Below, in pieces: positions 2,373 through 18,019 of a stretch of 34,568 nt of DNA. The DNA is taken from contig JBDRTG010000004.1 in assembly GCA_043824255.1 (NCBI GenBank), forward strand, positions 1 through 34,568, read 5' to 3'. The notes beneath the pieces are model-generated. The model had not been told where the DNA came from. It ran no database searches and worked only from the letters and a program-made list of their open reading frames with translations. The DNA is from a bacterium (GTDB lineage Bacteria; JAHJDO01). The position numbers and the translations under genes were made by a program. Positions within the stretch are counted from its first letter, which is position 1, and each line of letters begins with the position of its first letter.

Positions 2373-3752
2373 GTGGAAACAATCCTAATAGTAGATGATG
2401 AGAAGGATTTACGTTTTAACCTTTCCAATATTTTGAAGGACGAAGGTTACAACGCAATCGCTGTGGGAGACGGAAGGAAAGCACTTAATGCAGTTAAGAA
2501 AAATTCTCCCAATTTAGTCCTGCTGGATATGAAGCTTCCTGAAATGGATGGGATGCAGATTTTAGAGAAGATGAAGCTGATTGATGAGGATTTGGTTATT
2601 ATAATGCTTACTGCTTATGGAAATCTAAATGGAGCGGTAAAAGCAATGAAATTAGGGGCATTTGACTATCTTGCCAAGCCTTTTGATAATGAAGAATTAA
2701 TTCTTGTAATAAAAAGGGCTCTTCGGACCCAGTATTTAACCAAGGAAGTAGAAACTCTAAAAAAACGGTTTGGTGAAAAAGTTACAGCAGAAGAGCTGAT
2801 GGGAGAAAGCCCTCAAATAAAGCAAGTCTTAAAGCAGATTAAGATAATCGCTCCGACCAATATGACTGTAATACTTCAAGGCGAAAGTGGGACAGGCAAA
2901 GAATTAATTGCCCAGATGATTCATCAAGAAAGCCCGCGAAAAAATAACCCTTTTATTGCTATAGACTGCGGCGCAATTCCCGATACATTGGCTGAGAGTG
3001 AACTCTTTGGTCATGAAAAAGGCGCCTTTACAGGAGCTGATGCTCAAAAAGAAGGCAGGTTCGAAGAGGCTAATGGAGGAACTCTGTTTCTGGATGAGAT
3101 TACAAATCTCTCTTCTACTACGCAGAGAAAACTTCTCAGAGTGATACAGGAAAGAAGGCTTCAGCATATAGGCGGCAAGAGAAGTATAAAAGTTGACGTC
3201 AGAATAATCGTGGCTACGAACATTAATCTCTCAGGTGCGGTAAGGCGTGGTAAATTTAGAGAGGACCTCTTCCATAGGTTAAATGAATTTCATATTTCGC
3301 TTCCCCCGCTTAGGGAAAGAAAAGATGACATCCCTCATTTAGCCATGCGTTTTTTGGAGGGAGGAAATCAAGAATTAAATAAAAAAATAGAAGGGTTTTC
3401 TTCTGATGTAATGAAATTGCTTCTGGATTACCCCTGGCCGGGCAATGTTAGAGAATTAAAGAATGTAATCAGAAAAGCAGTACTTCTATGTGATTCCAAT
3501 CATATCAAACCGGGACACTTTCCATTAGATAATATTGCTTCCACTAAAAAGCCCGAATTTCAGCAGGATTTGGATAAAGGAGTCTCCCTCAAAGAGATAA
3601 CTAAAAAAGCGACAAAACAGATAGAAAAGGAAGCCATTGAGCAAGCACTGGCAAAAGCCGGTGGCAATAAAACTAAAACCGCCAAAATCCTCAAAATAGA
3701 CCGCATGACCCTCTATTCTAAGATGAAAGAATACCAAATACGGCACGTGTAA
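2373..3752 (+). CDS. NtrC-family sigma54-dependent response regulator (REC - AAA+ - Fis HTH)
   Basis: Receiver ILIVDDE/LLDMKLP; Walker A GESGTGKE; GAFTGA loop; Walker B LFLDEI; WPGNVRELKN; C-terminal GGNKTKTAKILKIDRMTLYSKM. Confidence 0.96.
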   Translation: METILIVDDEKDLRFNLSNILKDEGYNAIAVGDGRKALNAVKKNSPNLVLLDMKLPEMDGMQILEKMKLIDEDLVIIMLTAYGNLNGAVKAMKLGAFDYLAKPFDNEELILVIKRALRTQYLTKEVETLKKRFGEKVTAEELMGESPQIKQVLKQIKIIAPTNMTVILQGESGTGKELIAQMIHQESPRKNNPFIAIDCGAIPDTLAESELFGHEKGAFTGADAQKEGRFEEANGGTLFLDEITNLSSTTQRKLLRVIQERRLQHIGGKRSIKVDVRIIVATNINLSGAVRRGKFREDLFHRLNEFHISLPPLRERKDDIPHLAMRFLEGGNQELNKKIEGFSSDVMKLLLDYPWPGNVRELKNVIRKAVLLCDSNHIKPGHFPLDNIASTKKPEFQQDLDKGVSLKEITKKATKQIEKEAIEQALAKAGGNKTKTAKILKIDRMTLYSKMKEYQIRHV

Positions 3753-3755
3753 CGC

Positions 3756-3839
3756 TGTAGAACAAACTCTACACTTCCCAAACGAACGCTGAAAGCTGTT
3801 GTAAGATAAATTCTACACAGACGTAGAAACAACTCTACA
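3756..3839. promoter_or_regulatory. Three 18-bp palindromes TGTAGA-N6-TCTACA; probable upstream activator sequences for the adjacent NtrC-family activator
   Basis: 3756-3773 TGTAGAACAAACTCTACA; 3800-3817 TGTAAGATAAATTCTACA; 3822-3839 CGTAGAAACAACTCTACA; starts 44 and 22 bp apart; about 105-190 bp upstream of the -24 box. Confidence 0.82.
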
Positions 3840-3943: not shown

Positions 3944-3960
3944 TTGGCACGGAAGTTGCT
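3944..3960 (+). promoter_or_regulatory. sigma54 (-24/-12) promoter of the gvpA operon
   Basis: TTGGCACGGAAGTTGCT matches the consensus YTGGCACG-N4-TTGCW; GG 3946-3947 and GC 3958-3959 are separated by exactly 10 nt. Confidence 0.92.
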
Positions 3961-4008: not shown

Positions 4009-4035
4009 AATTTTAAACGAGGGGAGGTGGAAAAA

Positions 4036-4242
4036 ATGGCAGTAGAAAAAGCAATCGGTTCATCTAGTTTGGTGGAAGTTATTGACAGAATCCTTGATAA
4101 GGGTGTTGTGGTTGATGCATGGGTTAGAGTTTCTTTGGTCGGTATTGAAATACTGGCTGTTGAAGCAAGAGTCGTAGTCGCATCAGTCGAGACATACCTG
4201 AAGTATGCTGAAGCAATTGGTCTAACCGCAACAGCAGCTTAA
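4036..4242 (+). CDS. gvpA: Gas vesicle major structural protein GvpA (68 aa)
   Basis: [63 protein letters not shown] is the GvpA signature; SD GGAGGTG at 4023-4029 favours ATG 4036 over GTG 4027. Confidence 0.98.
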
Positions 4243-4252
4243 GGATAGTTAA

Positions 4253-4335
4253 GAGAAAGGATTCTTGCCGAGCCACCCTTATGAACACAGTCTGTGCTCA
4301 GAAAAGCATGGCTCGCCAAGAGATTCCTTCTTCTC
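4253..4335 (+). terminator. Large stem-loop after gvpA (partial terminator or mRNA-stabilising structure)
   Basis: Arms GAGAAAGGATTCTTG-C-CGAGCCA (4253-4275) and TGGCTCG-C-CAAGAGATTCCTTCTTCTC (4309-4335), inner hairpin at 4282-4300; no classical U-tract. Confidence 0.6.
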
Positions 4336-4357
4336 CCTAAGGTAAAAGAAAGAGGAA

Positions 4358-5077
4358 ATGAAGATGGCAGAAGCGCTAGATTTAAAGGATGTAGTTGAGG
4401 ATGTTGTTTCTTCCTATGAGAAGAGAATCCAGAGCATTGGTTCTGTTTTTGATGTTGATACTGCTCGTCTAATTTTTGGCGACTCTCAAGGGTCTCTCAT
4501 TCACACCAGAGAGGAAAGAGGGAAAATTAATACTCAGCTTCGGGATACCCTTGCCAGAAAAGAGCATCTCAGGAAAAAAGACTTTGACAATATGATGCAG
4601 AGCACCTTATCAGTTCAGGATCAACGGGAAAAAGAAGTAAGAGGTTCGTTAAATACTTATCTTAATGAACAAAAAGAGATGGCTCAGGTTTTAAGGGAAA
4701 ACTTAGAGAAGTTTAGAAATTCTCTTGCCATAGGTGAGGTCGGAAGAGTCAAGGAATTCCAAACAATAATTAAAGAGGTCCTTTCAAAGCAGGAAAAGAG
4801 AAAAGAAGAGATTACTTCTAAACTAAAGGATTTTCAGAAAGAACAACAGGAAATGGCAAAAAGACTCAAGGAACTTCTAGCAAAGGGAAGGGAGCTTAGG
4901 ATAAAGGATTTCAAATCAATGCTTAAGGAATTCAATGTTCAAAGAGATGAACGATTGGTGCTTCAAAAGAGCAGGAAACAAGAAGTGACCAAAATGCTCA
5001 GTGGCTTTAGAGAAGAAAGACAAAGAGCAGTAAAAGAGGACACAAGTAAGAAACGGAAAATTAAAAAGGAGGAATAA
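4358..5077 (+). CDS. Charged alpha-helical/coiled-coil protein, weakly GvpC-like
   Basis: Lies between gvpA and the GvpC-like gene; recurring units EVRGSLNTYLNEQKEMA / EITSKLKDFQKEQQEMA / EVTKMLSGFREERQRA. Confidence 0.6.
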   Translation: MKMAEALDLKDVVEDVVSSYEKRIQSIGSVFDVDTARLIFGDSQGSLIHTREERGKINTQLRDTLARKEHLRKKDFDNMMQSTLSVQDQREKEVRGSLNTYLNEQKEMAQVLRENLEKFRNSLAIGEVGRVKEFQTIIKEVLSKQEKRKEEITSKLKDFQKEQQEMAKRLKELLAKGRELRIKDFKSMLKEFNVQRDERLVLQKSRKQEVTKMLSGFREERQRAVKEDTSKKRKIKKEE

Positions 5078-5079
5078 AG

Positions 5080-5982
5080 ATGGGAATAGCAGAGAGTATG
5101 AGAAGTATGGTAGATGATATCGTTGTATCTCATGATTCACGGTCAAAGGCAATTGGCAGTATAGTGTCTGATACACAAGACATTCTGGGTAATGCCAGAA
5201 AAGCTGTGAAAGACTTTGCTGCCGATAGAAAAAAGATGAGTGCAGAACAGGCCAGGAACCTGGCTGATTTTGCAAAGGATTTGTCAAAGAGCACAGGAGA
5301 TATGCTTAACATATTCCATACTAATCGTAAACAGATGAGTGCGGAACAGGCAAAGAGCTTAGCAGATTTTGTTAAGGGTATATCAAAGAACGTAGAAAAA
5401 CTGCGACAGAATGCAAAAGATATGATTAAGGGGTTCCATAAAGACCGTAAACAGACGGGTGCAGAACAAGCAAGGAACTTAGCAGATTTTGCTGGCAGTC
5501 TGGCCAGGGATGTAGATTCGATGTTGATTGGTTTTGGGAAGGACCGCAGCAAGATGTCAAAGGAACTCAAGGACAAACTTGGCAAAGCAATAAAAGATAT
5601 TAAAGTATCTGTTGCTGAGACAATCAAAGGTGCCAGAAAACTCGTAGACGAATATAGCTCTGATATGGCAAAGGCAAAAGATGCATGGGAGAGCATGTCT
5701 TCCACTTCGGCTAAGGCTAAAAAAAGTGGTGTTGCGCCCAAGATTGAAGTCAAAGAAAAGGTAGCTACAGTTAAAGAAGCAGCGAAAGCAAAACCAAAAG
5801 CTAAGCCTAAAACTGTAGAAGGTCAGATATTAGCGTTGCTCGAGGAGCATCCGCGGGGAAGAACCATGGTCCAGATGGGAGAGGAGATGGGTGTCCACTT
5901 TGCCAGCCTCCTTCATCCAATGAAAAAACTGCTTGAAAGCGGTAAAGTCAATAAAATTGATAAAAAGTACCGTTTAGTCTAA
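5080..5982 (+). CDS. gvpC: GvpC-like repeat protein with a Lys/Pro linker and C-terminal winged helix-turn-helix
   Basis: Repeats F..DRK.MSAEQARNLADF with periods 33, 40, 33 aa; DNA repeats start at 5235, 5334, 5454; linker AKAKPKAKPK; tail QILALLEEHPRGRTMVQMGEEMGV...MKKLLESGKVNK. Confidence 0.75.
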   Translation: MGIAESMRSMVDDIVVSHDSRSKAIGSIVSDTQDILGNARKAVKDFAADRKKMSAEQARNLADFAKDLSKSTGDMLNIFHTNRKQMSAEQAKSLADFVKGISKNVEKLRQNAKDMIKGFHKDRKQTGAEQARNLADFAGSLARDVDSMLIGFGKDRSKMSKELKDKLGKAIKDIKVSVAETIKGARKLVDEYSSDMAKAKDAWESMSSTSAKAKKSGVAPKIEVKEKVATVKEAAKAKPKAKPKTVEGQILALLEEHPRGRTMVQMGEEMGVHFASLLHPMKKLLESGKVNKIDKKYRLV

Positions 5983-5994
5983 GAGATCGTAACA

Positions 5995-6318
5995 GTGGCG
6001 AAATTAATAACTTGTGCTTTCTGTAAAGGGACAGGAAAAGATCCTTTTCGCCTGCTTTCCAAGCTAGCCGACTGCCAGGTGTGCAGTGGCACAGGAAAGA
6101 TTAAGGTTGATGAACCTATAGTTGAATGTGCTTTTTGTAAAGGGAGCGGTGTTCATCCTCATAGTAGAGTTACTTGTTCTGCTTGTAAAGGGAGAGGTAG
6201 CGCTACACATAAAGGGACTAAAGAAAAATGTCCCAATTGTGGCGGAGCAGGATATAAAATAGATGGAAATCTTCCATGTAGTATTTGTGGAGGTAAGGGA
6301 GTCATTAAGAAAAATTAA
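5995..6318 (+). CDS. Stand-alone DnaJ-type cysteine-rich zinc-finger protein
   Basis: Six CxxCxGxG motifs: CAFCKGTG, CQVCSGTG, CAFCKGSG, CSACKGRG, CPNCGGAG, CSICGGKG. Confidence 0.88.
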   Translation: MAKLITCAFCKGTGKDPFRLLSKLADCQVCSGTGKIKVDEPIVECAFCKGSGVHPHSRVTCSACKGRGSATHKGTKEKCPNCGGAGYKIDGNLPCSICGGKGVIKKN

Positions 6319-7626: not shown

Positions 7627-8157
7627 ATGGCTAAAGAAAAGAAAAAAGAAGAGGGTTTAGATATTGATTTTGGGATGGAGAAACTCGGTTTAGGGGGACT
7701 ATTTAAGGGAATTGAGAAATTAGTTAATCTGGCAGCAGATTTAAAAGAAGCCGGAGGGGAGATTAAAAAAGAAGGCGAAATAGACCTGAGCCATCTTAAG
7801 AAAGGGATGAAGGGAGTATTTGGCTTTTCCGTAAAAAGCGCAGTGGGAGGAAAACCAACAGTTGAGACGTTCGGCCACAAAATTAAGAAGACCCCTGAAG
7901 GTCCCACGGTTGAAGAAGAGAGAGAGCCTATCGTAGATGTATTTGATGAAAAAGAAGAGATCCGAGTCTATGCTGAGATGCCAGGGGTAAATGACGAATC
8001 TATATCGGTCGATTTAAAGGGCGACATACTAGAAATAACAGCTGTAAGTAAGGATAGAAAATACCGCAAGGAAATTTTACTTCCTGCTAAAGTTGAACCT
8101 AAAACTTTAGAGAGGAGTTTTAAAAACGGTATCCTAGAGATTAAGATGAAGAAGTGA
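7627..8157 (+). CDS. Hsp20/alpha-crystallin small heat-shock protein (GvpH-like)
   Basis: REPIVDVFDEKEEIRVYAEMPGV...YRKEILLP...SFKNGILEIKMKK alpha-crystallin domain. Confidence 0.9.
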   Translation: MAKEKKKEEGLDIDFGMEKLGLGGLFKGIEKLVNLAADLKEAGGEIKKEGEIDLSHLKKGMKGVFGFSVKSAVGGKPTVETFGHKIKKTPEGPTVEEEREPIVDVFDEKEEIRVYAEMPGVNDESISVDLKGDILEITAVSKDRKYRKEILLPAKVEPKTLERSFKNGILEIKMKK

Positions 8158-8164
8158 ATGGATA

Positions 8165-9100
8165 ATGGCATTAACAGGATTAAGGGAAGATGCGTTAAAA
8201 CTGATTTTATTTGGAGGGAAGGGTGGCGTAGGAAAGACAACCTGTGCAGTTAGCGCAGGCTTTTATTTATCAAAGAATTTTAGGACATTACTTTTTTCAA
8301 CAGACCCGGCACATTCACTCTCTGATAGTTTAGAACGGAAAATTGGCAGTAACATAATAGAGGTGAAAGGAACAAAAAACTTGAGTGCTTTTGAAGTAAG
8401 CGCAGAAAAGGCTCTTTCCAGATTCAAAATAAAACATGAAGACCAGATAAAAAAGATTTTGGATACCTCTACCTATTTAGATGAGGAAGACATTGATTCC
8501 ATCTTTGATTTGCCTATTCCCGGGATGGATGAAGTGATGGGGTTCAAGACAATTGTTGATTTAATAGAGGAAGCGAAGTTTGACAAGTACATTGTAGATA
8601 CTGCGCCTAGCGGTCATGCGATGAGACTTCTGACTTTACCTGACCTGCTGGATGACTGGGTCAAGGTTATGGCAAAGATGAGATGGAAGTATCGGTATAT
8701 GGTGGAAAGATTTGGCGGAAGATATAATCCTGACGAAGGAGATGATTTCTTATTAACTATGAAAAAGACCGTAAAGAGAATAGAAAATCTTCTTAAGGAT
8801 CAAAAAAGGTGTGAATTTATAGCAGTTACCATTCCGGAAGATATGGCTATTTTAGAAACAGGGAGAATGATAAATAATTTGAACGACTATGGCATAAAGG
8901 TGAGGCAATTAGTAATAAATAATGTTGTAGAATCGCAGGATTGCGGATTTTGTAGAGAAAGAAGAAAAGGGCAGGAGAAACATATAAACCAAATAATGGA
9001 AAAGTTCGATAACCTAAAAATAACAATTGTCCCTTTGCAATCGAGAGAGGTCAAAGGCACAGATGCTTTGAATAATTTTAAGGAGGTGTTATTTCAATAA
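8165..9100 (+). CDS. ArsA/GET3 (TRC40) family ATPase, single nucleotide-binding domain
   Basis: [38 protein letters not shown]-terminal CxxC (CGFC). Confidence 0.93.
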
Positions 9101-11274
9101 TGGCAAAAAAGAACTCAACCCTTACACTTAAAGTAAAAGAAGCTCTGCCAAAGGATGCAGGAAGGGCTATCGCCAGGATTGACCCGGAAGATATGAAAAC
9201 GCTTGGAATAGAAGTAGGCGAGGTTGTAGAGATTGACGGTAAAAGAAAAACTCCTGTCAAAGCAATGCCGTCTTACGCAGAAGATAGAGGGAAAAAGACT
9301 ATTCAAATGGATGGAATATCCAGAGAGAATGCGCAGATTGGACTGGATGAAAAGGTAAATATCAGCAAGATTTCCTATAAGGCTGCTAACAAAATCACAC
9401 TCTCTCCTCTGACTGCATCGAGCCTGCTTCAAAGAGATAAAGATACCAGATATATCGGCTCGCTTATGGAGGGGCTTCCTGTAACCAGCGGCGATAGGAT
9501 TAGAGCTACGCTTTTTGGCTCAAGATCCTGCGATTTTAAGGTATTGGATGCTATTCCTGCGGGTGTAGTTTTAATAAACCAGACTACTTCAATAAAGATG
9601 GAGACAAAGGGGGTAGAAAAAGAGAGGTCAGCCAAAGTTTCATATGAAGATATTGGCGGGCTTGATAAGCCAATCCAAAGAATTAGGGAGATGATAGAGC
9701 TTCCTCTGAAATATCCTCAAGTATTTGAAAGATTGGGAATTGATCCGCCGAAAGGCGTTTTTCTTCATGGTCCTCCGGGTTGTGGGAAAACTTTAATCGC
9801 TCGGGCCGTGGCTAATGAAACAGATGCTTATTTTACCAGCATAAGCGGACCGGAAATTATGGGGAAGTTTTATGGGGAGAGCGAAGCCCGCCTCCGTTCC
9901 ATATTTGAAGATGCTCAAGCACATGCACCTGCTATCATATTTTTGGATGAGATTGAATCTATTGCTCCAAAAAGAGAAGATATGGGCGCTGAAAAACAGG
10001 TTGAGCGAAGAGTGGTAGCTCAGCTTCTGGCTCTGATGGATGGATTAGAATCAAGGGGACACGTTGTTGTTATAGCTGCAACCAATTTACCTAATACAGT
10101 TGATCCGGCTTTGAGACGGCCAGGCCGTTTTGACAGAGAATTATCTATCCCTATTCCGGATAAAAATGGGCGATTAGAAATTTTACAGATACATACAAGA
10201 GGAATGCCTCTGGCAGAAGATGTGACTTTAGAGAAGTTAGCTGAGATTACTCATGGATTTGTGGGCGCTGATTTAGAATCATTAGCAAGAGAAGCAGCAA
10301 TGTCAGCGTTAAGAAAGATTTTGCCTAAGATAGATTTTGAGTTAGCGGAGATACCTTATGAGACTCTTTTAGAATTGCAGGTTACTATGGATAATTTTTT
10401 GGAGGCATTGAAAGAAATAGAGCCTTCTGCTATCCGCGAGGTGTTTGTTGAAGTTCCTGATGTAAAGTGGAGTGAGATTGGTGGATTAGATGAAATAAAG
10501 AAGACTTTAATTGAAGCAGTAGAATGGCCTCTTAAATACAGCAGATTATTTGAGCACGTCAAAACAGAGCCGCCTACAGGCATTTTGCTCTCCGGTTCTC
10601 CTGGCACGGGAAAGACTTTGGTAGCCAAAGCATTAGCTACTGAGAGCGGGGTTAATTTTATTTCTGTTAAAGGCCCTGAGATTATGAGTAAGTATGTGGG
10701 TGAGTCAGAACGCGCTGTCCGTGAGATATTTAAAAAGGCAAGAATGGCAGCTCCCTGTATTTTGTTCCTGGATGAAATAGACAGTCTGGTTCCTAAACGC
10801 GGAAGCGCTGGAGGGGATTCACAGGTAACCGAGAGAGTAATCAGCCAATTTCTTACTGAACTTGGCGGGATAGAGAGATTAAAGGGCGTAGTAGTGATTG
10901 GTGCGACCAATAGATTAGATATGATAGACACCGCAATATCAAGGGCTGGAAGGTTTGATATCCATTTAAACTTTCCATTACCTGACAAAAAGACAAGACT
11001 CAGAATTTTTGAAATTCATGCTAAAAGCAAACCATTAGATAAAGATGTAAATTTAGAAAAATTAGCAGATCAAACAGAAGAATATTCCGGGGCAGATATT
11101 GAAGCTATTTGCCGTCGCGCGTCTATGCTTGCTATAAGAGGATATATAAAAAATCAAAAATCCCCGAAGGACAAGCCTACGGGGCAGGCAAAAAGCAAAG
11201 ATCAAAAATTAGAACTCAAGATATCAAAGAGCAATTTTGAAGAAGCTATTAAACTGGTTGAGAGTCAAAGGTGA
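9100..11274 (+). CDS. CDC48/VCP/p97-family AAA+ ATPase (N domain + two AAA modules)
   Basis: N domain [20 protein letters not shown]1 [31 protein letters not shown]2 [21 protein letters not shown]. Confidence 0.95.
11151..11210. repeat. Heptamer array (AAATCAA-like) interrupted by a 27-bp GC-rich palindromic insert, inside cdc48
   Basis: Removing 11162-11188 (CCCCGAAGGACAAGCCTACGGGGCAGG) leaves AAATCAA AAATCAA AAAGCAA AGATCAA AAATT; the insert folds as CCCCG-A-AGG/CCT-A-CGGGG. Confidence 0.7.
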
Positions 11275-11277
11275 TTA

Positions 11278-11748
11278 ATGCCAAGAAGTGTACAGCTAAA
11301 GACGATGAGAGATGTATGGAAAAGACATGGTAGAGTTCCAAGTAGTGTAGGATTAGGCGTGGGAGCACCTTCTAAATTAACAAAGCATTCTTCAACAGAA
11401 ATTAGTACAAGCTATAAAGGTAAGGTTTATGAGAAACCAAGAGAGTGGCAGTATATAACCAAACCTTTCTTTAAAAGGATAAAGGAACCGATTGTAGATG
11501 TATTTAAGGAAGCAGAAGAGATACAAATTATTATAGATTTGGGCAATTTCACCAAGGGCGAACTTGATTTTGAATTAAAGCAAGGAAAGTATTGTATCTT
11601 CGGTAAACATGGAGATTGCGAATTCCATGAAGAGATCCCTTTACCTAAGGGCGTAGATACAAAAAAGATAAAAGAAATATTTCGAAATAATATCTTAGAA
11701 CTTACTATGCCTAAGAAGACTATTAAAAAACGTGGAGAAAGAAAATGA
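11278..11748 (+). CDS. Second Hsp20/GvpH-like protein
   Basis: KEPIVDVFKEAEEIQIIIDL...FHEEIPLP...FRNNILELTMPK alpha-crystallin-like C-terminal half. Confidence 0.78.
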   Translation: MPRSVQLKTMRDVWKRHGRVPSSVGLGVGAPSKLTKHSSTEISTSYKGKVYEKPREWQYITKPFFKRIKEPIVDVFKEAEEIQIIIDLGNFTKGELDFELKQGKYCIFGKHGDCEFHEEIPLPKGVDTKKIKEIFRNNILELTMPKKTIKKRGERK

Positions 11749-12569: not shown

Positions 12570-13574
12570 ATGGCTGAAATTGGAAAATATATTTATGGAA
12601 TTATAAGTGCTAATACGGACTTCCGCCTTTTTGTCTCGGAGGATAGCATACATGCGATTCCTTCTCAGGATATCTCGGCTGTAGTAGGAGACTCCGAGAT
12701 AATCGATTACACTTGTATATCTAAAGGTGATGTGGCGAAGATGCTGGTCAGGCATCAAAAGGTTATTGAAAGAATTATGAGTTCAGGGATTACAATTATT
12801 CCTATGAAATTAGGCACATTCGCTGTTTCGGAAATTGAGGTCAAGTATGTTTTGGATAGAGGCTATAATCTCATTAAGGAGACTATGGAGAAGACGGGCA
12901 ACAAAATAGAGATTGATATAGTCGCCACATGGAGTGATTTTCCTTCAATTCTTAAAGAGGTTGGGGAAGAGAGAGAAATTAAAGAATTAAAAGAAAGGCT
13001 TTTAGCTAGTCCAAAAGAGATAACTATAACTGACCAGATGAAAGTAGGGCTTATGGTTAAGAAAGCATTGGATATAAAAAAAGGGAAATATGCTGAAAAG
13101 ATAAAGAATACACTGGAAACTCTAAGCCAGGATCTAAAGTTGCATGAACTCATGGACGATAATATGGTTGCTAATATAGCCTTTTTGATAAATAAAACCC
13201 GGCAAATAGAATTTGATAAAAAGATAGAAGACCTAAACACTGAATTTCACGATGAGTTAAATTTTAGATGTGTAGGTCCGCTTCCGCCTTATAGTTTCTA
13301 TACGCTTGAGATAAAAAAGATGCAATTTGGCGAGATTGATTGGGCAAAAAAGAAGTTGGGTTTAAATGATTTTGCAGATAAAGATGAAATTAAGAAAGCC
13401 TATCGAAGAGTAGCCGCTTCTTTCCATCCTGATAGAAATCCGGACATACCAGCTAAAATTTTTGATGATGTAAACAAAGCCAATAAGATACTTATTGACT
13501 ATTGCAAAGCTCGTGAACAAGCAGGCGAGGAAGAATTTAAAAAGAACGCAGTATTGATCAAAGTGAGGGAGTAG
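12570..13574 (+). CDS. GvpL/GvpF-family protein fused to a C-terminal DnaJ J-domain
   Basis: KYIYGII, TIIPMKLGT, ANIAFLI, VGPLPPYSF (GvpF/L), then LGL...DEIKKAYRRVAASFHPDRNP (HPD motif at 13425-13433). Confidence 0.88.
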   Translation: MAEIGKYIYGIISANTDFRLFVSEDSIHAIPSQDISAVVGDSEIIDYTCISKGDVAKMLVRHQKVIERIMSSGITIIPMKLGTFAVSEIEVKYVLDRGYNLIKETMEKTGNKIEIDIVATWSDFPSILKEVGEEREIKELKERLLASPKEITITDQMKVGLMVKKALDIKKGKYAEKIKNTLETLSQDLKLHELMDDNMVANIAFLINKTRQIEFDKKIEDLNTEFHDELNFRCVGPLPPYSFYTLEIKKMQFGEIDWAKKKLGLNDFADKDEIKKAYRRVAASFHPDRNPDIPAKIFDDVNKANKILIDYCKAREQAGEEEFKKNAVLIKVRE

Positions 13575-17341: not shown

Positions 17342-18019
17342 ATGAAAACGTTAATTTATGTTCCAATCATACATATGAGTGCAGACTTAGGTAGTATTGC
17401 CAAGCAGGTAAACAAAAGAGGTATTGCAGATTTTGGAGAGGAATTCTGGAAGAAACACAGAGAGACTGTGTCTGGCTTTTGGGATTCGATTGTAAAATAT
17501 TTTGCCAATTTAGAGGTTAAAGATTTTAAAATATACCAGGATGGCTTAGTAGCTGATGGAGAAGTTGGCCAAAAAATAGTGGAGGAAGGCGTTAAATCTG
17601 GTAGTAAAAATTATTCAGTTATCAATAATTTATTGAAGAAAGGTGCCGTTTTGGTTCAAACGGAGGATTTCCCTCTGGTTAAAAAAGAAAGAGATCGTAT
17701 TGTTGAAATTACCCAGGCTAAGACGATGACAATGAAGTTAATAGCTTATTTAAGGTATAGATTGACTAAGGATTGGTTACTAAAGAAAAGAGATAATTAT
17801 ATAACTAAAAGGATAGATGAAACCTTAGAACATGGAGAAAAAGGTATCCTCTTTTTAGGTGCATATCACAACATAATACCTGAACTCTCCAAAAAAATTC
17901 AGATAACTGAGGTGAAAGAAGCAAAGAAGGTAAAGGATTATCAAAGATTGCTTCTCTCATTTAAAAAGAATAAAGAAGAATTTGAAGAGTTAGCAAGATA
18001 TTTAATCTCACCAATATAA
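17342..18019 (+). CDS. Hypothetical protein closing the gvp operon (possible TraB/Tiki-like fold)
   Basis: 225-aa ORF 18 bp after gvpJ; motifs PIIH, YQDG, RDNYI, LFLGAYH; the fold assignment is inference. Confidence 0.7.
   Translation: MKTLIYVPIIHMSADLGSIAKQVNKRGIADFGEEFWKKHRETVSGFWDSIVKYFANLEVKDFKIYQDGLVADGEVGQKIVEEGVKSGSKNYSVINNLLKKGAVLVQTEDFPLVKKERDRIVEITQAKTMTMKLIAYLRYRLTKDWLLKKRDNYITKRIDETLEHGEKGILFLGAYHNIIPELSKKIQITEVKEAKKVKDYQRLLLSFKKNKEEFEELARYLISPI

Follow-up and report, generated by a model that had tools for sequence, protein, structure and literature searches.

A probable GvpC-like coat protein of gas vesicles with a winged-helix tail, and its possible role as a tether to the nucleoid

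The stretch of bacterial DNA analysed here, called the window below, is 34,568 nucleotides (nt) long and carries a large gas-vesicle cluster. Inside this cluster, as the second gene after gvpA, lies an open reading frame (ORF) of 300 amino acids (aa) on the + strand, with an ATG at 5080, the stop at 5982 and a strong ribosome-binding site (AGGAGG) 7 nt 5' of the start, which itself abuts the stop of the upstream ORF. Its product is very probably a strongly diverged GvpC-like coat protein, and it ends in a winged-helix domain that is carried on a flexible linker. The gene and its parts are the following.

5080-5982, + strand: whole gene, encoding the divergent, probably GvpC-like protein with a winged-helix tail (ORF list; 23 homologues; synteny in 40 genome and 80 metagenome loci)
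5080-5199, + strand: N-terminal segment, residues 1-40, more strongly conserved in the family than any other part (alignment A1)
5200-5298, + strand: 33-residue repeat R1, residues 41-73
5299-5397, + strand: 33-residue repeat R2, residues 74-106
5398-5418, + strand: 7-residue insert, residues 107-113, which makes the second spacing 40 aa or 120 nt
5419-5517, + strand: 33-residue repeat R3, residues 114-146
5518-5616, + strand: degenerate repeat R4, residues 147-179
5617-5724, + strand: last helical segment, residues 180-215, with the invariant W203 (alignment A1; helix 161-215 in the full-length model)
5725-5814, + strand: flexible linker, residues 216-245, net charge +6, with one short helix and otherwise irregular (predicted local distance difference test score, pLDDT, 38-53)
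5815-5979, + strand: winged helix-turn-helix domain of 55 residues, residues 246-300 (AlphaFold2; Foldseek, template-modelling score 0.82-0.86; VIA-align)

The repeats can be seen in both the DNA and the protein. A 99-nt repeat family has three copies, at 5199-5297, 5298-5396 and 5418-5516, with spacings of 99 and 120 nt, and the outer copies are 64% and 73% identical to the middle one. Tandem Repeats Finder, run on 4300-6100, reported only two tiny unrelated arrays and not the GvpC-like repeats, because the copies are too diverged. In the protein, R1-R3 share 16-17 of 33 residues in pairwise comparison and R4 shares 9-11 of 33 with them, while 20,000 composition shuffles gave a mean of 2.6/33 and a maximum of 10/33. 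The BLOSUM autocorrelation of the protein peaks at lags 33 and 40. The period of 33/40/33 aa, with DNA units 99 and 120 base pairs apart, had already been noted in a first-pass annotation of this DNA, and it is borne out by the repeat search and by the protein-level identities against the shuffles.

For the family-wide comparison, alignment A1 was used, which has 24 rows, namely the window protein and 23 homologues from a word-indexed search. In the N-terminal segment the columns M1, A4, I14, S17, R21, K23, G26 and D31 are nearly invariant. The same is true of F46, R50, M53, Q57, L61 and L68, with a spacing of 4-3-4-4-7. When F64, between L61 and L68, is counted as well, a stripe F-R-M-Q-L-F-L results that lies on one helix face, and the pattern repeats in R1-R3. 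R3 and the 7-residue insert are missing in 22 of the 24 rows. The full-length AlphaFold2 model is helical over residues 3-215 with a pLDDT of 35-55, mostly unstructured over 216-245 and confident again in the tail. The low pLDDT of the modelled helices agrees with what one expects of a helix whose only packing is against a partner.

We now consider the kinship of this body with GvpC. A reference was found by a plasmid search with the window's GvpA, namely the gvpC gene of Nostoc sphaeroides plasmid p4 (NZ_CP031945.1, locus L041), whose product scores 160 bits on the Pfam GvpC model, PF01304. With hhalign, the A1 profile matches Nostoc GvpC with a probability of 91.4% (E 9e-7), aligned from both N-termini, such that residues 1-40 lie on the N-terminus of the cyanobacterial protein. 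The repeat region taken by itself gives 92% and a score of 47.5 over 141 columns, compared to 13.7 for the reversed sequence and a maximum of 17.7 in 60 shuffles (mean 11.0, standard deviation 2.2). The aligned core consists of D/E-R, five residues, Q-A, and then L, F and L at helical spacing. According to a review, GvpC binds GvpA through a motif of arginine, leucine and phenylalanine on one helix face, and one 33-residue repeat spans four GvpA subunits (PMC10903477). The stripe from F46 to L68 matches this motif and was counted in favor of a GvpC-like body.

Some results weigh against this assignment. The GvpC profile match rests on a single cyanobacterial sequence, and the 300-aa protein gives no match to PF01304 (gathering cut-off 21 bits) at E<=0.1. 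It passes no other Pfam or NCBIfam model either, and its sub-threshold Pfam matches are to amphipathic-helix families (FAM184 31.2 bits, Apolipoprotein 25.5, PhaP_Bmeg 17.3). The lack of any canonical GvpC (PF01304) at E<=1 in the window's own genome (2.0 Mb, 87% complete) was, on the other hand, counted in favor of a GvpC-like body. A relation to the haloarchaeal protein was considered and rejected: the Halo_GVPC repeats (PF05465) have no Pfam match in the 300-aa protein, and hhalign of A1 with Halobacterium GvpC gives a probability of 0.3%. Since the curated model failed, we do not count the protein as a member of PF01304 as that model stands, yet it belongs to the wider GvpC kind. The GvpC-like character proposed in the first-pass annotation thus holds, on the position after gvpA, the 33-residue period, the predicted helices, the conserved stripe and the Nostoc GvpC profile match, in spite of the failed PF01304 test. 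Altogether, we consider it very probable that the protein is a strongly diverged GvpC-like coat protein.

The tail can be described with more certainty. The basic stretch AKAKPKAKPK comprises residues 235-244 and lies at 5782-5811, exactly where the first-pass annotation had placed a basic linker, and the tail follows from T245 (nucleotide 5812). AlphaFold2, applied to the tail alone with 12 aligned sequences, gives a mean pLDDT of 95.9 and a predicted template-modelling score of 0.81; in the full-length model the pLDDT of this part is 91-94. The secondary-structure order of the model according to DSSP is helix, short strand, helix, helix and two-stranded wing, which is the winged helix-turn-helix layout. 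The Foldseek neighbors are Zalpha, IclR/TtgV, MarR/OhrR, Sso10a and IdeR domains with template-modelling (TM) scores of 0.73-0.86, and VIA-align superimposes the tail on Zalpha, MarR and IclR structures with Z 10.0-10.7 and root-mean-square deviations (rmsd) of 1.0-2.5 Å over 54-59 of 59 residues. In the Foldseek search against the PDB no row reached E<=0.001 (best 5.2e-3), as expected for a 59-residue query, and the fold claim therefore rests on the TM scores, the rmsd and the VIA-align Z. The window's tail passes no Pfam winged-helix model, the scores of EutK_C (16.5 bits), HTH_24 (13.6) and MarR_2 (13.6) all being sub-threshold, and the tail of one relative (P0029) passes MarR_2 with 29.7 bits against 27. 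An ESM Atlas look-up gave scores of 0.82-0.83, which is under the 0.9 level, and its hits (EutK_C and IclR-type clusters) are to be taken as leads only. We conclude that the tail, noticed at first as a segment of about 56 aa with the spacing of a winged helix-turn-helix, is a genuine, conserved and selected winged-helix module; the structure prediction and Foldseek comparison that had been proposed as a check returned this fold, with VIA-align Z values of about 10.

The setting of the gene is given by the following neighbors.

4027-4242, + strand: gvpA, the shell protein that the 300-aa protein would coat (Pfam Gas_vesicle 56.1 bits, cut-off 25)
4358-5077, + strand: ORF239, a helical paralogue of 239 aa between gvpA and the 300-aa gene (BLASTP E 0.003)
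5995-6318: a 107-aa DnaJ-type CXXCXGXG zinc-finger protein, directly after the 300-aa gene
5' of gvpA: a regulatory module of histidine kinase, response regulator and sigma-54 enhancer-binding protein, the last at 2373-3752

From gvpA onwards, the order is gvpA, ORF239, the 300-aa gene, the zinc-finger gene, gvpN and a gene for a 100-aa coiled-coil protein (ORF100), followed by Hsp20, an ArsA-like ATPase, a two-ring Cdc48-like AAA+ ATPase, a second Hsp20 and a response regulator. The cluster further contains four GvpF/L paralogues, one of them with a J domain, and GvpJ- and GvpM-like proteins. The ORF239 family and the 300-aa family are paralogues by hhalign (98.5%, E 2.9e-15), and the slot of ORF239 is the same in related loci. 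A direct link of the ORF239 family to Nostoc GvpC was rejected, as its hhalign score of 16.8 is below the best of 30 shuffles (22.8), so that only the 300-aa protein is linked to GvpC directly. The 300-aa protein, ORF239, the zinc-finger protein and ORF100 have no NCBIfam match above cut-off.

A number of side observations were made in the cluster. Chaperone-type genes are abundant (5995-6318 and 7627-11748), with the same set in most related loci. The GvpF/L paralogue at 12570-13574 has a C-terminal DnaJ J domain (GvpL_GvpF 165 bits, DnaJ 44 bits), and this fusion recurs in related loci as proteins of 330-375 aa. Upstream of gvpA there is a sigma-54 type promoter, TGGCAC-N5-TTGC, at 3945-3959 (ca 70 nt 5' of the gene), and an inverted repeat GTAGA-N6-TCTAC in two copies, at about 3757-3772 and 3823-3838, to which the product of the enhancer-binding protein gene at 2373-3752 probably binds. 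A '23S rRNA-intervening sequence protein' (PF05635, 68 bits) is encoded at 1928-2299, with the response regulator on one side and this sigma-54 activator on the other. Close to its N-terminus the histidine kinase has nine glutamates in a row, all encoded by GAA (ca 107-133). A 225-aa ORF (17342-18019) stands at the end of the cluster, and a 197-aa relative is found upstream of the cluster in locus L032.

The same architecture is widespread. A search for GvpC combined with a winged helix in other genomes had been suggested together with the first description, and a profile of 12 tails was searched against 1.84 billion representatives. It matches 1023 proteins at E<=1e-3, of which 251 reach E<=1e-10. 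Among the 148 best readable representatives, 94 also have the repeat domain (E<1e-5), the rest being mostly short fragments or generic multi-HTH proteins. Eighty metagenome loci were fetched with alignment A3 (7 tails), which samples the major tail clade and not the window's own subclade. All 80 have a gas-vesicle context, and the tail is fused to the repeat domain in 78 of them, the other two being cut by a contig end; other gas-vesicle genes are present in 74/80 and gvpN in 59/80. In the window's own genome the tail profile finds only this gene and one weak match on contig 5 (E 0.008).

Forty loci were taken from species-representative genomes of Omnitrophota, Planctomycetota, Desantisbacteria, Nitrospirota, Thermodesulfobacteriota, Elusimicrobiota, Sumerlaeota and other groups, and their order is always gvpA, paralogue, the orthologue of the 300-aa gene in one or two copies, zinc-finger gene and gvpN. 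The number of paralogous helical proteins per cluster is two to four. In many related clusters a third small helical paralogue of 110-125 aa with a basic C-terminus stands after the zinc-finger gene (for example L007:4535-4891, L027:6974-7312 and L026:6983-7330); the window has none in that slot. A subgroup of the metagenome loci (L099, L105, L111, L118 and L122) differs in that gvpA stands between the two helical paralogues, gvpN is present in a second copy and the zinc-finger protein has about 250 aa.

The end of the protein is exchanged between relatives. Of the A1 rows, with the window included, 13 have a winged helix, 10 a short tail rich in lysine and arginine (K/R) and one another type. 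The winged helix is found in only 4 of the 40 genome loci, and the other 36 have 11-19 K/R in the last 45 residues. On a quick, unrooted FastTree of the repeat region (87 rows, after incomplete, N-containing and E>1e-40 rows had been dropped) there are at least 7 switches between winged-helix and basic tails, at least 4 of which are forced by well-supported branches, with a mean of 29 for shuffled tails. Since the tree is unrooted, gains and losses are not separable. Across the 120 loci, inspected by eye without a statistical test, no gene was noticed that co-varies with the tail type.

The first-pass annotation knew of no characterized GvpC with a winged helix-turn-helix, and our literature searches, outside which subscription journals and supplements lay, likewise came upon no account of such a domain in GvpC or GvpN. 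Haloarchaeal GvpC, on the other hand, is already known to have a compact C-terminal domain attached by a linker (PMC10903477).

We turn now to the binding partner of the tail. Its top structural neighbors are all DNA- or RNA-binding winged helices. Among 155 unique tails, K or R is found at position 32 in 63%, at 34 in 62%, at 40 in 94%, at 47 in 85%, at 49 in 59% and at 50 in 98%, and the conserved exposed basic residues are located at the start and middle of helix 3, the recognition helix, and on the first wing strand. Taken at the level of sequence and fold, the structural neighbors, the conserved K/R residues and the swaps with K/R tails lean to nucleic acid or another polyanion as the partner.

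Two better-known proteins can be compared at this point. The C-terminal globular domain of Halobacterium GvpC, residues 317-371 (L042:3306-4454), passes the ROS_MUCR model with 28.3 bits at a cut-off of 25.4, and ROS/MucR is a DNA-binding zinc-finger family. The window's tail is also weakly similar to the C-terminal domain of EutK (Pfam E 0.0088; PDB 3i71, E 0.028). In Salmonella, the Eut compartments stay immobile at the poles of the cell when eutK is deleted, and nucleotide binding by the positively charged EutK tail was proposed in the same study (PMC12487888).

As to the kind of nucleic acid, the fold similarity to Zalpha is high. We take the Zalpha contact residues, located on helix 3 and the wing, to be Asn173, Tyr177 and Trp195 of ADAR1. 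When the family is aligned to ADAR1 Zalpha with HMMER, they correspond to position 36, which is mostly G, position 40, with K/R in 94%, and a position at about 58 (L/V). With these presumed contacts unconserved at the aligned positions, Z-DNA binding is not indicated despite the similar fold.

The explanation that we favor is the following. The helical body (residues 1-215) would lie along the GvpA ribs on the outside of the vesicle and stiffen the shell, in the manner of cyanobacterial GvpC. The linker of about 30 residues would hold the 55-residue winged helix off the shell, and a mature vesicle would thus be studded with many copies of it. The tail might then bind a polyanion, most likely chromosomal DNA, without sequence specificity, and such a multivalent hold on the nucleoid could spread the vesicles through the cell and share them between daughter cells. 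The last two steps are speculative. This would be a tether, an idea already raised in the first-pass annotation, similar to that proposed for EutK of ethanolamine microcompartments and to PhaF and PhaM on storage granules. The statement as a whole, with a GvpC-like coat and the tail as a tether to the nucleoid or another polyanion, is our first choice, but we put its chances somewhat below even.

A number of observations argue against the tether. Averaged over the family, the tail domain has a net charge of only +0.3 (range -10 to +6), and the linker is acidic in most of the tail-bearing relatives, which makes it ill-suited to DNA binding. In the window's subclade the two basic residues with which the recognition helix begins have been lost (F at position 32 and S at position 34). 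The wing tip is acidic in most members, with D or E at position 52 in 81%. Furthermore, the winged-helix form and a basic-tailed paralogue occur together in some loci (L045, L046 and L050), and the two tail types need therefore not be equivalent. A winged-helix-like end is also present on GvpN of Nostoc sphaeroides plasmid p4 (L041:4766-6055; 429 aa), where it follows the AAA+ part and an acidic proline-rich linker of about 80 residues. Residues 372-424 of this GvpN match the tail by hhalign with E 0.0012 over 53 columns, with TrmB and MarR as sub-threshold Pfam matches, and at this place a partner in the form of a protein or the shell would account for a winged helix more readily than DNA. 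Finally, split green fluorescent protein (split-GFP) experiments in Halobacterium showed that the C-terminal fragment of GvpC interacts with itself, with the N-terminus of GvpC and with GvpN, GvpO and GvpF, H, I and L (PMC9372576). These are the only experiments on a GvpC C-terminal domain, and they show protein-protein contacts and do not address DNA.

In the strongest alternative, the coat is the same and the tail is a protein-protein adaptor that links GvpC molecules head-to-tail or tail-to-tail. Such an adaptor may also dock GvpN, the GvpO-like ORF100, GvpF/L or the zinc-finger protein onto the growing vesicle. The split-GFP interaction hub of Halobacterium GvpC is precisely such a C-terminal fragment, aa 329-382 (PMC9372576), and the haloarchaeal protein has the same layout of repeats, extended linker and compact C-terminal domain (PMC10903477). 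The related winged helix at the end of Nostoc GvpN suggests a module that gathers vesicle proteins, the acidic linkers and the near-neutral domain fit a protein partner, and the Foldseek rows include winged helices that contact only protein, such as O-methyltransferase dimerization domains and the activation domain of T4 MotA. However, the conserved exposed residues are basic and are placed where winged helices touch nucleic acid, and the repeated swap for plain K/R-rich tails is hard to square with a specific protein interface. Also, none of the genes in the 120 loci looked through by eye was seen to follow the tail type. A complex prediction for two copies of the tail, made without controls, gave a score of 0.00 against a mark of 0.42 and counts for neither side. 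On balance, a tail that acts as a protein hub is possible, with perhaps one chance in three's worth of credence, and almost as likely as the tether.

A different view of the body is that it does not coat the mature shell at all, but is a soluble scaffold or chaperone, similar to phasins or apolipoproteins, that covers the hydrophobic GvpA before or during assembly, with the tail localizing this activity. The only Pfam similarities of the protein, all sub-threshold, are indeed to amphipathic-helix families (FAM184, Apolipoprotein and PhaP_Bmeg), the clusters hold several paralogous helical proteins each (two to four), and this one is rich in chaperones, with two Hsp20, the ArsA-like ATPase, the Cdc48-like AAA+ ATPase, the DnaJ-type zinc finger and the GvpF/L-J domain protein. 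Against this stand the specific profile match to a true GvpC that begins at both N-termini, the conserved R/L/F stripe and the 33-residue period, which in GvpC corresponds to four GvpA subunits (PMC10903477). We consider this scaffold role to be rather improbable.

Still less probable is a feedback regulator, in which vesicle-free protein would use the winged helix to bind a gvp operator and adjust transcription. In its fold the tail resembles the MarR and IclR regulators, and 10 of 12 tails have sub-threshold MarR_2 matches. However, the single winged helix has no dimerization element, and no column of the domain varies more than position 37, in the recognition helix (0.73 bits). Orthologues have swapped the domain for unstructured basic tails at least 7 times. 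A sigma-54 enhancer-binding protein, the TGGCAC-N5-TTGC promoter and the paired inverted repeats before gvpA are already present in the cluster, and GvpC is an abundant structural protein, with GvpA:GvpC at 25:1 (PMC10903477). Nothing specific favors this role, and it is unlikely.

Returning to the nucleoid tether, a broader form of it can be considered, in which the outer gas-vesicle proteins of archaea and bacteria have repeatedly acquired unrelated nucleic-acid-binding appendages and the nucleoid serves as the scaffold on which vesicles are spaced and inherited. The appendages in question would be the winged helix (on the 300-aa protein and on cyanobacterial GvpN), the K/R-rich tails in Planctomycetota and Omnitrophota, and the ROS/MucR zinc finger in haloarchaea. 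This generalization is doubtful at present, and we offer it with more reserve than the tether itself.

The findings have a number of implications. GvpC is the handle by which gas vesicles are tuned and functionalized as reporters for ultrasound and magnetic resonance imaging, and this toolbox would be widened by a large branch of GvpC, so far without annotation, that brings its own folded domain for display. The gas-vesicle clusters of Omnitrophota, Planctomycetota, Nitrospirota, Thermodesulfobacteriota and others would, with this assignment, not be GvpC-less. A surface protein with a domain of DNA-binding type also gives a directly testable hypothesis on the positioning and inheritance of gas vesicles. 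If the nucleoid scaffold is true, it would provide a principle of gas-vesicle partition without a dedicated ParA-type motor, in parallel to EutK and PhaF/PhaM; if the protein hub is true, it would generalize the C-terminus of haloarchaeal GvpC as an organizer of assembly factors.

It remains to compare the protein with the known systems, the closest of which is cyanobacterial GvpC, represented by Nostoc sphaeroides. The two have in common the tandem 33-residue repeats, the all-helical prediction and the shared repeat core, and the gene is located just downstream of gvpA and before gvpN in both cases. However, the 300-aa protein fails PF01304 and has only 3-4 repeats, one of them with a 7-residue insert. 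Its body is basic and not acidic, the ORF239 paralogue intervenes after gvpA, and it has the linker and the winged helix, which Nostoc GvpC lacks.

Haloarchaeal GvpC (Halobacterium salinarum pNRC100, NC_001869.1, L042; PF05465) resembles the 300-aa protein in its design, with repeats, a linker and a compact C-terminal domain of nucleic-acid-binding type (PMC10903477), and its gene also lies between gvpA and gvpN. Here there are 7 repeats followed by the ROS_MUCR domain at 317-371. The differences are that the repeats have no detectable sequence relation to those of the 300-aa protein, that the C-terminal domain is a ROS/MucR zinc finger and that the protein is very acidic.

EutK (PF16365, EutK_C; PDB 3i71) is likewise found on the surface of an organelle enclosed by protein and has a small winged helix facing the cytoplasm, to which the tail is weakly similar, and it is needed for the compartments to spread away from the cell poles (PMC12487888). 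The tail similarity is below the Pfam cut-off (16.5 vs 27.5 bits), and DNA binding by EutK has itself only been proposed (PMC12487888). In addition, the shell-binding part of EutK is a BMC hexamer domain, which has no relation to GvpC repeats and is not present in the 300-aa protein.

The last comparison is with the polyhydroxyalkanoate granules, an organelle that is partitioned via the chromosome and for which PhaF and PhaM are the tethers between granule and nucleoid. In these proteins an amphipathic helical part that binds the granule surface is followed by a basic DNA-binding tail rich in lysine, proline and alanine, and in this respect they are similar to the 300-aa protein. The PhaP_Bmeg match of the latter is under the cut-off, as given above. 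The two also differ at the C-terminal side, as the lysine/proline/alanine stretch of the 300-aa protein is only 10 residues long and the protein ends in a folded winged helix.

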